A stretch of DNA of 38,798 nt, from IMG/VR virus record IMGVR_UViG_2703718804_000009. One strand, given 5' to 3'. Positions within the stretch are counted from its first letter, which is position 1. Each line of letters starts with the position of its first letter. Position numbers and translations under genes: made by a program. This DNA is from a virus (taxonomy: Duplodnaviria; Heunggongvirae; Uroviricota; Caudoviricetes). Below, in pieces: positions 3,010 to 14,454 of the stretch. The notes beneath the pieces were generated by a model, which worked only from the letters and a program-made list of their open reading frames with translations, was not told where the DNA came from and did not search any database.

Positions 3010-3067
3010 AAAAATGGCGGCAGAGCAGTCACGGAGTAAAACTGATACCGCCAAACGTCACCAGAAA
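3010..3067 (-). ncRNA. dicF: DicF small RNA (ftsZ-targeting sRNA of the dicB operon)
   Basis: Reverse complement of 3010-3067 reads TTTCTGGTGACGTTTGGCGGTATCAGTTTTACTCCGTGACTGCTCTGCCGCC followed by a U-run, matching the DicF sequence as I recall it; located between the ydfC-like gene and dicB. Confidence 0.75.
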
Positions 3068-9352: not shown

Positions 9353-10177
9353 ATGACCACTATTACCAAAGAACGTATTGAATTGTTCATTAAAAATCCG
9401 CTTGAAAACGGGCTTGCCCGTGGCGAACAAATGGAACTGGCGCAGATTGCACTGGCCTCACTGGCAGCAGAGCCGGTGGCGTGGAAGGCAACCTTCACGC
9501 AAATTGACCATGAATATAATACGTTCACCGCTATGTATTCTGACAAAGCAGAAGTCGAACGGTGGGTGCGACTGCATAAAGTAGGTGATTTTCGGGCAAA
9601 AATAACACCACTTTATGCATCATCGCCAGCGCTGGTAGTGCCTGATAAGTTGCCGCGTGAATACATAAGAGGTTGGCCTCTTGCGTATAGTGATTATGCT
9701 GAAGGATGGAACGATTGCCGCGAAGCCATGCTTCAGTCAGGAAACTTTCGGGAAAACAAGGATTCGTCAACCAATAATTTTCGGGAAATTTCGGAAACGT
9801 CAACCAACTCTCCGCTAATTCCTGGTGAAGTGTTGTCCGCAATCCGGGAGGTTGCCAGGATTCGTGCCGATTTCGATGATTTTGACGGTGACAGGCGAGG
9901 TGTTGGTGATTGTCTGGATGAGGCCGAGCAAGAGCTTATCGTTACCATTAACAAATATGCCAGTCAGTTGGCAGTAGAGCCGGTAGTACCTGATGACGTT
10001 CTGGAACAGACAGTAGCGTCGCCAGTGCCAGGTAACCAGGTTAGCGAATTAACAATGTGGGTTAAGCGTCTGGCTCACTCCTTAAAGTACGCCAATAGTT
10101 TAAGCAGCTTGCCTGATAAGGCGATGGAATATCTGAAGCAGAACGGGTTGGTAGGTGTGGAGGATATTTTACGATGA
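9353..10177 (+). CDS. hypothetical protein (274 aa)
   Basis: Track ORF; contains an internal imperfect 29-bp direct repeat at 9745-9806. Confidence 0.5.
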   Translation: MTTITKERIELFIKNPLENGLARGEQMELAQIALASLAAEPVAWKATFTQIDHEYNTFTAMYSDKAEVERWVRLHKVGDFRAKITPLYASSPALVVPDKLPREYIRGWPLAYSDYAEGWNDCREAMLQSGNFRENKDSSTNNFREISETSTNSPLIPGEVLSAIREVARIRADFDDFDGDRRGVGDCLDEAEQELIVTINKYASQLAVEPVVPDDVLEQTVASPVPGNQVSELTMWVKRLAHSLKYANSLSSLPDKAMEYLKQNGLVGVEDILR

Positions 10178-10277
10178 CCTGGCCTGAAGCATTCGCAACG
10201 GTAGGAATGGTGATGGCGGTGGCGCTGGTGGTGTATTCGATTTGCCGTTGGGGTTAACAAACAAAAACCCCGGATTG

Positions 10278-10303
10278 ATGGTCCGGGGTTTTTGAAGGAA
10301 ACA
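10278..10303 (+). terminator. intrinsic terminator
   Basis: CCCCGG / CCGGGG stem followed by TTTTT. Confidence 0.6.
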
Positions 10304-10631
10304 AAACAGAAACAACAATTGCCGTTACCTGTTGTTACCATGGCAAGTAAACGTATCTCAGGCGAGCGCATTGCGCCGTTCTGACGCAGATAAATTAGCC
10401 TGGATAGAAGGTGCTGGCAATAAAAAATAGCGTTTTCTTATCGGTGTCGGTAAGATTGCTGCGGGTGCTTGAGGCTGTCTGCCTCAGGCATGCCACTGTA
10501 AGGCAGACAGAGAAAAGCCCCAGTTAACATTACGCGTCCGGCAAGACGCTTAACATTAATCTGAGGCTCAATCTATGAACGGCAAATCTAGGTTAGCCTC
10601 TTACGCGCCGAAAGGCAAGGAGAAGCAGGCT

Positions 10632-10787
10632 ATGAAGCAGCAAAAGGCGATGTTAGTCGCCCTGATCGTCATCTGTATTACCGTCATTGTGACGGCACTG
10701 GTAACGAGGAAAGACCTCTGCGAGGTACGAATCCGAACCGGCCAGACGGAGGTCACTGTCTTCACAGCTTACGAACCTGAGGAGTAA
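10632..10787 (+). CDS. hokD: Hok/Gef-family type I toxin (51 aa), near-identical to HokD/RelF as recalled
   Basis: MKQQKAMLVALIVICITVIVTALVTRKDLCEVRIRTGQTEVTVFTAYEPEE; AAGGAG SD 9 nt upstream; structured leader; an in-frame upstream ATG at 10575 gives the 70-aa track ORF. Confidence 0.85.
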   Translation: MKQQKAMLVALIVICITVIVTALVTRKDLCEVRIRTGQTEVTVFTAYEPEE

Positions 10788-10930
10788 GAGACCAGGCGGG
10801 GGAGAAATCCCTCGCCACCTCTGATGTGTCAGGCATCCTCAACGCACCCGCACTTAACCCGCTTCGGCGTTTTTTCCGTTGATTAACTCTAGTTATTAGA
10901 GAATCGAACTTTTATTGATGGGGCAGGGAG

Positions 10931-11323
10931 ATGAAGAAACTTGTTTTAGTCGCAGGTGTAATGATGGCAACAGTAATGTTGGGAGGGTGTGCAGCAAAGG
11001 TCGATCCAGCGTTGAAAGCAGAAGCAATGAAGCCACTAACATGTAATGATGAAAAGCAATGTGACTTTTATTGGAAACGAGCGCAATTCTGGTTGGCTAA
11101 TAATTCCTCATGGAAAATTCAAACGGCGACAGACACGCTAATTTCCACTTATAATCCCTCACCAAATAGTCCATTCCTCGCTTATCAAGTGAGTAAAATG
11201 CCAAATGAAGATGGATCCTCAAGAATTTTCATCAAGCCTTTTTGCGATAATATGTTTGGCTGTCAACCAAACCCCTATCAGGCAATTGTTTCCTTTAAAA
11301 ACTTCGTTAAAACTGGGCAGTAA
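10931..11323 (+). CDS. putative lipoprotein (130 aa), moron
   Basis: Signal peptide plus lipobox (VMLGGC); AT-rich coding sequence; flanked by terminator-like hairpins. Confidence 0.6.
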   Translation: MKKLVLVAGVMMATVMLGGCAAKVDPALKAEAMKPLTCNDEKQCDFYWKRAQFWLANNSSWKIQTATDTLISTYNPSPNSPFLAYQVSKMPNEDGSSRIFIKPFCDNMFGCQPNPYQAIVSFKNFVKTGQ

Positions 11324-11824: not shown

Positions 11825-12883
11825 GTGCGGGTATTACTTAGACCTGTTCTGGTGCCGGAACTCGGGCTGGTGGTCCTTAAGCCAGGTCGTGAATCCATGC
11901 AGGTATTTCACAATCCTCGAGTGCTCGTGGAGCCGGAACCGAAAAGCATGTGCGGCCTGCCATCCGGAGTCGTCCCTGCCGTTCGCCAGCCGCTGGCGGA
12001 GGATAAATCATTACTGCCATTTTTCAGCGATGATCGGGTGATTCGTGCTGCTGGCGGCGCTGGGGCACTGTCTGACTGGCTGTTGCGTCATGTCAAATCC
12101 TGCCAGTGGCCTCATGGTGACTATCATCACAGTGAAACCGTCATTCACCGTTATGGTACCGGCGCGATGGTGTTGTGCTGGCACTGCGACAACCAGCTTC
12201 GTGACCAGACATCAGAATCGCTGGAGCTGCTTGCTCAACAAAATCTGACAGCCTGGATGATTGATGTCATCCGCCATGCAATAAGCGGTGCGCAGGAGCG
12301 CGAATTATCTCTGGCTGAATTATCCTGGTGGGCGGTCTGCAATCAGGTGGCTGATGCGCTTCCGGAGTCTGTATTGTGTCGTTCACTGGGATTACCGGTG
12401 GAAAAAATCCGCTCCGTATACCGTGAGAGTGACATCGTACCGGGAGAACAGACTGCCACCAGCATACTGAAGCAGCGCACAAAAAATATTGCGCTGCCAC
12501 TTCACGTCCACCAGCAACAGCCCCCACTCCAGGAAAAGACGTTAGTAAGCATCGCCGTTGATCCGGAGTCTCCGGCTCAGTATCTCCAGCGCCAGAAACC
12601 ACAACGGGAAGAGATGCCTGTATACACGCGCTGGGTAAAAACACAGAAGTGCATGACGTGCGGCAATCAGGCAGATGATCCGCATCACATCATTGGTCAT
12701 GGACTGGGAGGGATGGGAACAAAGGCTGACGATTTGTTTGTTATTCCGCTGTGCCGTAAATGCCATAACGAACTGCATGCCGGGGTAAAAGAATTTGAAG
12801 CGAAACACGGCAGTCAGTTGGTGCTACTGATTCGTTTTTTAATACACGCGAGAAATTCGGGTGTCCTGAAGTGGAAAGCATGA
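11825..12883 (+). CDS. DUF968/YdfU-like protein with C-terminal HNH-like Zn-binding motif
   Basis: Track ORF (GTG start, GGAGG SD); C-terminus CMTCGN...HHIIGHG...CRKCHNELH; sits upstream of rusA as in Qin-type prophages (from memory). Confidence 0.6.
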   Translation: MRVLLRPVLVPELGLVVLKPGRESMQVFHNPRVLVEPEPKSMCGLPSGVVPAVRQPLAEDKSLLPFFSDDRVIRAAGGAGALSDWLLRHVKSCQWPHGDYHHSETVIHRYGTGAMVLCWHCDNQLRDQTSESLELLAQQNLTAWMIDVIRHAISGAQERELSLAELSWWAVCNQVADALPESVLCRSLGLPVEKIRSVYRESDIVPGEQTATSILKQRTKNIALPLHVHQQQPPLQEKTLVSIAVDPESPAQYLQRQKPQREEMPVYTRWVKTQKCMTCGNQADDPHHIIGHGLGGMGTKADDLFVIPLCRKCHNELHAGVKEFEAKHGSQLVLLIRFLIHARNSGVLKWKA

Positions 12884-13249
12884 ATGACTGAACGCATAGA
12901 ATTTGTTTTGCCTTACCCGCCGACGGTGAATACCTACTGGCGACGTCATGGCAATACGTATTTCATCTCGGAAGCCGGAAAGCGTTATCGCCGTGATGTG
13001 GCGCTAATTGTTCGCCAGCAGCGGTTGAAATTAAACCTGTCCGGAAGGCTGGCGATAAAGATTATTGCAGAGCCACCGGATAAGCGCCGTCGTGACCTGG
13101 ACAATATCCTGAAAGCACCACTGGATGCGCTGACGCATGCCGGACTACTCATAGACGACGAGCAGTTTGATGAAATCAATATTGTGCGCGGTCAGCTCGT
13201 TCCTGGTGGGCGGCTGGGGATAAAAATCACAGAACTGGAGTGCGCATGA
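12884..13249 (+). CDS. rusA: RusA Holliday-junction resolvase
   Basis: 121 aa; MTERIEFVLPYPPTVNTYWRR N-terminus typical of RusA; position before Q. Confidence 0.85.
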   Translation: MTERIEFVLPYPPTVNTYWRRHGNTYFISEAGKRYRRDVALIVRQQRLKLNLSGRLAIKIIAEPPDKRRRDLDNILKAPLDALTHAGLLIDDEQFDEINIVRGQLVPGGRLGIKITELECA

Positions 13250-13935
13250 ATAACCAGTATTTACAGTTTGTGCGTGAGCAGCTCATTATCGCCACCGCTG
13301 ATTTGAGTGGGGCAACAAAAGGTCAGCTTGAAGCCTGGCAGGAGAATGCCATGTTCGATACAGGGCGTTACAGGCGAAAAAAAATCCGGTACCGCGATGA
13401 AGTGACTGGAAAAATGATAACGCGGGATAATCCACCAATCCCGGGAAAACAATCACTGGCGAATGGCTCATCAATTGCCCTGGTCAGCCCGGTTGAGTTT
13501 TCGACATCATCATGGCGGCGGGCTTTGCTGTCTCTTGAAGAGCATCATAAAGCCTGGTTGTTGTGGTGTTACGGCGAGAGTATTTGTTGGGAATATCAGA
13601 TCGCGATAACACAGTGGGCGTGGAATGAATTTAATACTCAATCAGGTACCAGAAAAATTGCAGGGAAAACGCAGGAACGCCTGAAAAAATTAATCTGGCT
13701 GGCGGCGCAGGCAGTAAAAGCAGAACTTTTTGGTGGGGAAGGTTATGAATACCAGGAGCTGGCATTACTGGCGGGAGTGACAACTAAAAACTGGTCCAAA
13801 ACATTTACTCGTCACTGGGTTGCAATGAAACACATTTTTCAACGACTGGATAGTGAGGCTTTATTGTTTGTAATGAGAACACGTTCAAAACAAAAGGCGG
13901 CATTTTCAAAGCAAAGTGTTGCAAAAGTAGATTGA
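13246..13935 (+). CDS. late-gene antiterminator Q-like protein
   Basis: ATGA overlap with the rusA stop; immediately upstream of a candidate late promoter/terminator, the tRNAs and the lysis cassette. Confidence 0.6.
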   Translation: MNNQYLQFVREQLIIATADLSGATKGQLEAWQENAMFDTGRYRRKKIRYRDEVTGKMITRDNPPIPGKQSLANGSSIALVSPVEFSTSSWRRALLSLEEHHKAWLLWCYGESICWEYQIAITQWAWNEFNTQSGTRKIAGKTQERLKKLIWLAAQAVKAELFGGEGYEYQELALLAGVTTKNWSKTFTRHWVAMKHIFQRLDSEALLFVMRTRSKQKAAFSKQSVAKVD

Positions 13936-14143: not shown

Positions 14144-14219
14144 CGGCCCTTTAGCTCAGTGGTGAGAGCGAGCGACTCATAATCGCCAGGTCGCTGGTTC
14201 AAATCCAGCAAGGGCCACC
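14144..14219 (+). tRNA. tRNA with CAT anticodon, most similar to tRNA-Ile2 (lysidine, AUA-decoding; ileX/ileZ-like); tRNA-Met not excluded
   Basis: Hand-folded cloverleaf: 7-bp acceptor stem, GCTC/GAGC D-stem, CTCATAA anticodon loop, perfect T-arm (GCTGG TTCAAAT CCAGC), CCA end. Confidence 0.7.
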
Positions 14220-14220
14220 A

Positions 14221-14297
14221 ACCGCCACTAGCTCATCAGGAAAGAGCGTCAACCCTTTAAGTTGAGTGTGCGAGGTTCGAGTCCCCGGTGGCGGTCC
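14221..14297 (+). tRNA. tRNA-like gene, atypical; predicted anticodon UUU (Lys) with C at position 33 and one T-stem mismatch; possible pseudo-tRNA
   Basis: Hand-folded: 7-bp acceptor stem (CCGCCAC/GTGGCGG), D-stem GCTC/GAGC, anticodon stem TCAAC/GTTGA with loop CCTTTAA, TTCGAGT T-loop, CCA end. Confidence 0.4.
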
Positions 14298-14299
14298 AG

Positions 14300-14375
<76 letters not shown>

Positions 14376-14378
14376 ATA

Positions 14379-14454
<76 letters not shown>

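Follow-up and report, generated by a model that had tools for sequence, protein, structure and literature searches.

Sequence, homology, and predicted RNA structure point to a complete hok/mok/sok type I toxin-antitoxin cassette in a lambdoid prophage of Escherichia coli

Introduction

Among the closest described relatives of the locus analyzed here is hokW-sokW of phage Sp5, a functional type I toxin-antitoxin (TA) system with a 71-nt Sok RNA that aids the release of Sp5 (Takada et al., 2021; PMC8621323). In Sp5, Hok is toxic and is neutralized by SokW, partly in dependence on RNase III and Hfq, and upon RecA-dependent induction SokW is lost and HokW is made (PMC8621323). Deletion of hokW-sokW decreases Sp5 phage release about two-fold, and hokW shows no growth phenotype in the uninduced lysogen (PMC8621323). 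HokW is 44% identical to the Hok toxin of plasmid R1 (PMC8621323), where the hok/mok/sok (parB) locus is plasmid-borne and serves in plasmid stabilization. The R1 system relies on tac/fbi closure of the hok mRNA, the ucb/anti-SD element, 3' processing, mok-coupled translation of hok, and a Sok antisense RNA with RNase III cleavage (PMC9841398). Chromosomal relatives in E. coli K-12 include hokC (gef)/mokC/sokC and hokD (relF), the latter lying behind relB-relE in the Qin prophage. The cassette type described in this study is already known, as it is annotated as mokW/hokW/sokW in phage 933W (GenBank AF125520) and was experimentally shown to be a TA system in Sp5 in 2021.

In this study, we analyzed a hok locus in a stretch of viral DNA of 38,798 nucleotides (referred to as the window), for which an earlier note, made from the sequence alone, had proposed a Hok/Gef toxin gene with a structured leader and had left the antitoxin RNA unlocated. 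Our analysis is based on sequence, homology, predicted structures, and covariation, and we infer transcription, processing, toxicity, and role from the R1 and hokW paradigms. On this basis, positions 10451-10876 very probably hold an intact hok/mok/sok type I TA cassette of the hokW/hokC/hokD subfamily, which forms a self-contained unit in a lambdoid prophage. The features of the locus are listed in Table 1.

Table 1. Features of the hok locus and of the genes downstream of it in the window.
Feature	Position	Strand	Remarks
Bidirectional terminator-like hairpin	10262-10294	.	13-bp stem between A and T runs; hit of the terminator scan
hok promoter, -10 TAAGAT	10451-10456	+	Candidate; 6 nt before the mRNA start G10463
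Full-length hok mRNA (predicted)	10463-10876	+	~414 nt; from the 5' end GGGUGCUUGAGG to the T run past the 3' hairpin
tac	10463-10474	+	Predicted to pair with fbi (full length), ucb (3'-trimmed), or 10482-10494 (metastable alternative)
5' hairpin	10475-10510	+	Retained in the closed and open conformations
ucb/anti-SD box AAGCCCC	10515-10521	+	Predicted to pair with the mok SD (full length) or tac (3'-trimmed)
sokT hairpin of the trimmed mRNA	10563-10600	+	mok SD GAGG (10563-10566) pairs with GCCUC (10596-10600; dcb-like box)
mok frame	10575-10787	+	70 aa, in frame with hok; own SD GAGG at 10563-10566
hok toxin gene	10632-10787	+	51 aa; SD GGAG at 10619-10622
3'-UTR hairpin	10795-10816	+	9 bp, GAAA loop
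fbi	10837-10849	+	CCUCAACGCACCC; complementary to tac
hok terminator	10860-10875	+	CGC-UUCG-GCG followed by T6
Sok promoter (predicted)	10590-10618	-	-35 TTGCCT (10618-10613), 17-nt spacer, -10 TAACCT (10595-10590), start G10583
Predicted Sok antitoxin RNA	10513-10583	-	~71 nt; annotated sokW and sokC align here
Sok 5' tail, single-stranded, 14 nt	10583-10570	-	GCCGUUCAUAGAUU; covers the mok AUG
Sok terminator hairpin, 24 bp	10569-10515	-	5' arm with anti-SD CCUC; UUUU tail after it
TTAACATTA twice, with GCGTC/GACGC palindrome	10524-10558	-	Middle arms and apical stem of the Sok terminator hairpin
DUF968	11825-12883		Downstream of hok
RusA	12884-13249		Downstream of hok
Antiterminator Q	13240-13935		Downstream of hok

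Results

The window is an E. coli lambdoid prophage, and a prophage in strain 33F4 is 99.8% identical to it over 10 kb. The 33F4 prophage begins with integrase, exonuclease, dicB, repressor, cro, replisome organizer, and small genes, and continues with hokD, a gene for a 130-aa protein, DUF968, RusA, Q, four tRNAs, and the lysis, terminase, and head genes. In the window, the hok locus is therefore preceded by the replication genes and followed by DUF968, RusA, and Q; this is the early-right, nin-like part of the prophage, and the late-region placement given in the earlier note is incorrect. The same slot is filled by hok in phage mEp460, in a Rac-type element, and in K-12 Qin. We found no relBE-like genes ahead of hok or anywhere else in the window; their absence, which had been remarked on before, is not an anomaly, K-12 hokD being the truncated form (see below). 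Of the 5426 complete E. coli genomes, 4717 have a match to the 451-bp locus, and the number of places per genome has a median of 2 and reaches 9. Four genomes carry a copy 100% identical to the locus, and identity of at least 99% was reached in only five records.

The earlier note had assigned the 51-aa ORF to the Hok/Gef family and called it near-identical to HokD/RelF, and this is borne out. The peptide (MKQQKAMLVALIVICITVIVTALVTRKDLCEVRIRTGQTEVTVFTAYEPEE) matches Pfam HOK_GEF (PF01848) with E=1.2e-22 (79.7 bits, cutoff 22) and PHROG 251 'MokW-like host killing' with E=1.5e-31. Compared to K-12 HokD, 47 of 50 aligned residues are identical, the number of aligned residues being 50 because the K-12 slice used in this comparison lacks the initiator Met. 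At the loci 100% identical to the window locus (n = 4 E. coli genomes), RefSeq labels the gene hokD (WP_052977210.1).

The ATG at 10575, also pointed out before as the start of a mok-like extended product, opens a 70-aa frame that shares its stop with hok and has 58 of its 70 residues in common with MokW. The same arrangement is found in hokW and hokC, where according to the annotations one stop codon is common to mokW and hokW, and likewise one to mokC and hokC. We compared 33 loci from Escherichia, Shigella, Kluyvera, Pseudocitrobacter, Photorhabdus, Erwinia, Pantoea, and Kalamiella, and an ATG stands at the aligned mok position in 32 of these 33 relatives. The mok frame coincides with that of hok in 24 loci, is shifted by +1 in 6, and is a 19-codon ORF in the third frame in 3. 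An in-frame mok was considered as a possible anomaly of the window, and these counts rule that out; judged by sequence, it is the norm for the hokW/hokC subfamily. Because the frame varies among the 33 loci, the comparison suggests that the translation of mok matters more than the sequence of the mok peptide. Translation of mok is presumed to be coupled to that of hok.

The leader of the hok mRNA is matched by the full model of the Rfam family RF01794 (10463-10637 on the + strand, model positions 1-157), with 110.7 bits against a gathering threshold of 59 and E=1.6e-24, and the Rfam consensus structure contains the tac-ucb stem. The predicted fold of 10463-10876 has a minimum free energy (MFE) of -161.9 kcal/mol and a z-score of -5.4 relative to shuffled sequences. 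In this MFE structure, tac is paired with fbi, and ucb is paired with the mok SD region. When the 3' end was set in silico at 10836 or 10822, tac moved to ucb and the mok SD moved into the hairpin with GCCUC, and with the 3' end at 10830 a metastable tac hairpin was formed. The three conformations of R1 hok mRNA match those predicted for the window RNA (PMC9841398). The 10-bp-stem hairpin at the 5' end that the earlier note had described is recovered by folding (-19.7 kcal/mol), with the outer 10 bp formed by CTGTCTGCCT and AGGCAGACAG and three inner pairs past a 2-nt bulge; helix 2 of this hairpin covaries, and its loop is a hot spot of variation with an entropy of 0.90. All 33 loci retain the sokT hairpin, with folding energies between -11.7 and -16.3 kcal/mol. 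Its loop holds the first mok codons, and the tail/loop region is hypervariable. The sokT loop of the window (ACGGCAAA) contains no YUNR U-turn motif, and 23 of the 33 relatives have one; this motif reportedly speeds the binding of Sok. The 3'-UTR hairpin (helix 15) is paired in 97.4% of the cells and has four covarying pairs, and by analogy with the R1 model (PMC9841398) it probably forms the 3' end of the processed mRNA and protects it.

The predicted structure was also evaluated by covariation in the 33-sequence alignment. The results show that 87.3% of the cells are paired compared to 38-44% when the 3' partners were slid by 1-3 columns, although the structure used is the MFE of the window, which is one member of the alignment, and this makes the percentage paired too high, whereas the compensatory changes are unaffected. 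Pairs changed on both sides number 36, compared to 8-20 in the slid controls. One pair between tac and fbi (alignment columns 4 and 402) occurs as U-A in 18 loci and as C-G in 12 others.

For the antitoxin RNA, a generic promoter scan of both strands of 10250-11000 returned no sigma-70 site, and the earlier note had not located Sok. However, alignment places Sok on the minus strand: the 5' ends of annotated sokW (933W) and sokC (K-12) both align to G10583, and the 3' end of the 71-nt sokW aligns to 10513. Reading of the sequence ahead of G10583 gives a candidate promoter whose -10 hexamer is separated from G10583 by 6 nt and whose two hexamers are identical to those of 933W sokW. The -35 sequence TTGCCT is found in 25 of the 33 loci, and the first, second, and sixth bases of the -10 hexamer (TAnnnT) are kept in all 33. 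The generic scan misses this promoter because TAACCT matches the consensus at only three of six positions. We considered the blank scan as proof that Sok is absent and ruled this out, since a sub-threshold -10 hexamer and a bulged hairpin are just what the functional sokW has in identical form.

The Sok RNA is predicted to fold with -29.9 kcal/mol and a z-score of -4.9. At every one of the 33 loci, folding favors the antisense strand over the sense strand, the means being -21.8 and -13.2 kcal/mol, respectively. The direct repeat and palindrome described in the earlier note are present as stated and belong to this structure: the only two copies of TTAACATTA in the 38.8-kb window lie at 10524 and 10550, with GCGTC (10534) and GACGC (10545) between them. 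On the Sok strand, the pairing of the two UAAUGUUAA arms includes two G-U wobbles, and the hok strand has A-C mismatches at these positions. We also considered the two copies of TTAACATTA as a target-site duplication around a mini-insertion, a reading that would fit the apical extension of the Sok hairpin, of about 20 nt, which is missing from the aligned loci of K-12 hokC, Photorhabdus, Erwinia, and Pantoea. We set this reading aside, as the repeats serve as hairpin arms by virtue of the G-U pairs on the Sok strand. Taken from alignment and folding, these features describe a putative cis-encoded Sok that would be transcribed from a promoter of its own, begin with an unpaired tail complementary to the mok start, and end in a terminator hairpin.

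It could be argued that there is no Sok at this locus and that hok is controlled just by mRNA folding or by read-through from the early operon, as with K-12 relBE-hokD, in keeping with the blank sigma-70 scan and with RefSeq, which gives 'hokD' alone and no ncRNA at the identical loci. We regard this as very improbable. The alignment of annotated sokW and sokC and the sokW-type promoter hexamers argue against it, as does the conservation of the antisense hairpin with its U tail, which is favored over the sense strand at every locus and has its G-U pairs on the Sok strand only. In addition, the truncation of K-12 hokD, counted from 10618, removes exactly the region that the window keeps. A Sok encoded on the + strand was rejected as well: it would follow from the name of RF01794, 'sok', but this family models the hok-sense strand, and in the controls (K-12 hokC and 933W) it hits the strand of hokC and hokW, opposite the annotated sokC and sokW.

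The proposed hok promoter has a counterpart in other loci, as TAnnnT hexamers (TAGAAT, TATAAT, TACAAT, TATATT, and others) are found at the same spacing in the full-length relatives with an aligned 5' end. No good hok -35 sequence was found upstream of TAAGAT, where there is an A-rich tract. The stem of the hok terminator has just 3 bp, its right arm being GCG compared to GCGGG in relatives, a lineage-specific deletion of 2 nt. The terminator scan of 10250-11000 gave the upstream hairpin as its sole hit, and this hairpin terminates the preceding genes and shields the hok cassette. For most relatives, homology sets in at 10455, within the hok -10 hexamer, and runs to about 10875-10890, indicating that the cassette is essentially the transcription unit.

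These observations bear on whether the cassette could be structurally intact but silent, a decaying or neutral passenger like K-12 chromosomal hok, with too little transcription of hok or Sok. The weak or absent hok -35, the poor match of the Sok -10, the deletion in the terminator stem, the sokT loop without YUNR, and the rarity of the exact allele are all compatible with such a state. Intact hok loci of the E. coli chromosome (hokA, hokB, and hokC) are, moreover, stated to give no post-segregational killing in work by Pedersen and Gerdes as cited in bioRxiv 10.1101/2025.08.07.668861. Against this, every regulatory element is intact, as are the two ORFs, and structural constraint on them is visible, the Sok promoter is the same as that of the functional sokW, and hokW, which also has no CCCGC terminator, works nonetheless. 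The marks of inactivation seen in K-12, namely IS insertion and leader truncation, are absent from the window. On balance, we consider a silent cassette unlikely.

We then compared the window cassette with the described systems. The mokW/hokW/sokW locus of 933W and Sp5 (VT2-Sakai) shows 90.9% nucleotide identity to it over about 405 nt; the Sok terminator hairpin, tac, ucb, and fbi are identical, and both loci encode a 70-aa in-frame Mok and a 51-aa Hok. The differences lie in the Sok 5' tail with mok codons 2-5 (GCCGUUCAUAGAUU in the window and GUUCAGCAUGGAUU in the hokW locus), in the C-terminus of Hok (TVFTAYEPEE against AVFVDYESEK), and in the sequence 3' of fbi, the terminator included. 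The two loci also differ in setting. In 933W, hokW lies at 58.4-58.7 kb of 61.7 kb, at the right end past the late genes and on the strand opposite the adjacent large gene L0134, whereas the same cassette in the window precedes Q and points in the same direction as the early-right operon. The experimental evidence on hokW thus comes from a copy in another genomic position and orientation than the window cassette.

K-12 hokD shows 96.5% DNA identity to the window from the hok SD through the CDS, the 3' UTR, fbi, and the terminator, and its neighborhood in Qin is as in the window, with hok followed by rem or small genes, DUF968/ydfU, and Q. In K-12, however, relB-relE replaces everything upstream of window position 10618, so that the hok promoter, tac, ucb, the mok start, and the Sok gene are all missing from K-12 hokD, which keeps an orphan fbi. 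The window has no relBE and an intact leader. Because homology begins at the hok SD and the Rfam scan found no RF01794 leader at the K-12 hokD locus, K-12 hokD is, as judged by sequence comparison, a truncated derivative of which the window copy is the intact form.

K-12 hokC/mokC/sokC has the same architecture as the window cassette, including an in-frame mokC, with about 74% DNA identity and an Rfam leader match of 118.3 bits. It differs in that the sokC hairpin lacks the GC-rich apical extension present in the window, and IS186 lies about 20 bp past the shared hokC/mokC stop. No fbi-like box was found downstream of K-12 hokC. The R1 system shares the regulatory logic, its structural elements being predictable in the window, but its toxin is distant. 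Unlike in R1, mok of the window is in frame with hok and would give an N-terminally extended Hok if translated.

Discussion

Based on the R1 and hokW systems, the window cassette would work as follows. Transcription from a weak promoter (-10 TAAGAT) would begin at G10463 and give a stable hok mRNA of about 414 nt. In the full-length RNA, tac would be paired with fbi and ucb would mask the mok RBS, so that the RNA would be neither translated nor bound by Sok. Slow trimming from the 3' end would take off fbi, whereupon tac would pair with ucb and the mok SD would enter the sokT hairpin. The convergent promoter would produce a Sok RNA of about 71 nt (10583 to 10513) that is unstable and whose 14-nt 5' tail and stem are predicted to be perfectly complementary to the mok SD and AUG. 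Once Sok is bound, the translation of mok, and hence that of the coupled hok, would be blocked, and RNase III would cut the duplex. Should Sok no longer be made, either because the element is lost or because the prophage is induced, the hok mRNA kept in store would be translated, and the 51-aa Hok would enter the inner membrane and cause depolarization.

By analogy with hokW, the role of the cassette is most likely to help lysis or phage release on induction, possibly together with prophage stabilization. A working cassette could also act mainly in abortive-infection defense or in classic addiction. For such a role speak the lowered plating of T4 by R1 hok/sok, as cited in PMC8621323, the approximately four-fold enrichment of hok in prophages (bioRxiv 10.1101/2025.08.07.668861), and the PHROGs class 'moron / host takeover'. 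However, in the sole direct test of a prophage hok, that of hokW in Sp5, the effect on phage release was positive and the lysogen had no growth phenotype without induction, and hok is not enriched beside defense systems (bioRxiv 10.1101/2025.08.07.668861). No sequence feature discriminates between these roles. A main role in defense or addiction is a possibility to be kept in mind, although we find it somewhat doubtful, and help on induction is the reading that we prefer.

How Hok could be released on induction may be related to the position of the cassette. It follows closely on a terminator and has the orientation of the early-right operon, so N-antiterminated transcripts made during prophage induction would cross it in the sense direction. 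Such transcription might occlude the convergent Sok promoter, or yield 5'-extended hok RNAs without the tac-fbi lock, or both, and either effect would tie the release of Hok directly to induction. We regard this proposal as speculative and rather improbable. If it is true, it would be one way to account for the so far unexplained disappearance of Sok that was reported for hokW upon induction, and the hypervariable Sok 5' tail would insulate co-resident cassettes, which occur at up to nine places per genome.

The significance of the locus beyond its correct annotation is small. Since RefSeq gives 'hokD' without mok or Sok and the Rfam model that bears the name 'sok' describes the hok-sense strand, annotation pipelines may suggest that the antitoxin is missing or on the wrong strand. 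The window copy also shows K-12 hokD as it was before relBE replaced its leader.

Variation in the leader and the Sok target loop

The leader of the hok cassette is otherwise conserved among its relatives, and its variation is concentrated in two hypervariable patches, at 10570-10589 and 10488-10502. The first patch comprises the Sok 5' tail and the loop of the Sok-target hairpin of the trimmed hok mRNA, including mok codons 2-5, while the second corresponds to the 5' hairpin loop. One Shigella flexneri genome has three co-resident loci (L006, L009, and L012) that differ in the Sok tail and are near-identical in the Sok hairpin, consistent with a diversification of specificity. The YUNR U-turn motif is absent from the predicted Sok-target loop of the cassette (ACGGCAAA, 10579-10586); it is present in 23 of the 33 aligned relatives, for example as CUGA in hokW of phage 933W/Sp5.

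The frame of mok relative to hok is not fixed in the family. In the alignment of the relatives (A2), mok is in frame with hok in 24/33 loci and in the +1 frame in 6/33, and in the other frame it is a 19-codon ORF (3/33). The record of a Rac-type element (L057, 2622-2835) annotates mok as out of frame with hok.

Strand of the Rfam sok model

The Rfam model RF01794 ('sok antitoxin') matches the window at 10463-10637 and also the 933W and K-12 hokC control loci (L001, 2509-2683, and L003, 502-654). This model describes the leader on the hok-sense strand, beginning at the 5' end of the mRNA and extending to the hok AUG, and the annotated sokC and sokW lie on the strand opposite to the match. Annotation based on RF01794 therefore assigns 'sok' to the wrong strand, with a length approximately twofold too great.

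The Tyr47 codon of Hok

The UAC codon of Hok Tyr47 (10770-10772) lies within CUUACGAA (10767-10774), and TACGAA at this site is invariant or almost so across all 33 aligned loci. We take the surrounding sequence to fit the context for A-to-I editing by TadA, which would recode Tyr to Cys. Analogous editing has been reported for hokC, hokD, and hokE in a Hok survey preprint (bioRxiv 10.1101/2025.08.07.668861).

The hok terminator and neighboring genes

The right arm of the hok terminator has a 2-nt deletion compared with Escherichia/Shigella-type loci and two MAG contigs carrying the same terminator, leaving a 3-bp stem with a UUCG loop, followed by a T run. Read-through from the shortened terminator into the downstream 130-aa ORF is possible. 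The N-terminus of this ORF is lipoprotein-like (MKKLVLVAGVMMATVMLGGC), no Pfam family was found for it, and it could be a second moron.

Features of the prophage outside the hok coding sequence
Feature	Window position	Strand	Remarks
DicF antisense sRNA	3015-3066	-	Rfam RF00039, full-length match, 73.4 bits
274-aa ORF, intact	9353-10177		composite matches to several PHROGs of unknown function
hok terminator, shortened stem	10860-10875		right arm GCG versus GCGGG in relatives with the same terminator
130-aa ORF	10931-11323	+	directly 3' of hok; match to phrog_16082 (a PHROG of unknown function)
Four tandem tRNA genes	14145-14451	+	immediately 3' of antiterminator Q

Hok cassettes with ~90% DNA identity to the E. 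coli one were also observed on six genome contigs (L007, L014, L033, L045, L048, and L054), several of them very short, which are labeled as Veillonella parvula MAG, Xanthomonas pisi, Acinetobacter idrijaensis, Candidatus Scatousia, Haemophilus MAG, and Collinsella MAG. These cassettes most likely represent contamination or enterobacterial DNA assigned to the wrong bin.

In the 99.8% identical prophage of E. coli strain 33F4, the DicF region adjoins dicB and ydfABC, and the same four tRNAs are annotated as Ile, Lys, Thr, and Gly. The 274-aa ORF, for which no Pfam family was found, is intact in the window, whereas the 33F4 annotation shows two pseudogene fragments in the corresponding region, of which one is DUF551-like. 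The 10,001-bp query aligned to a stretch of 10,227 bp in that prophage.
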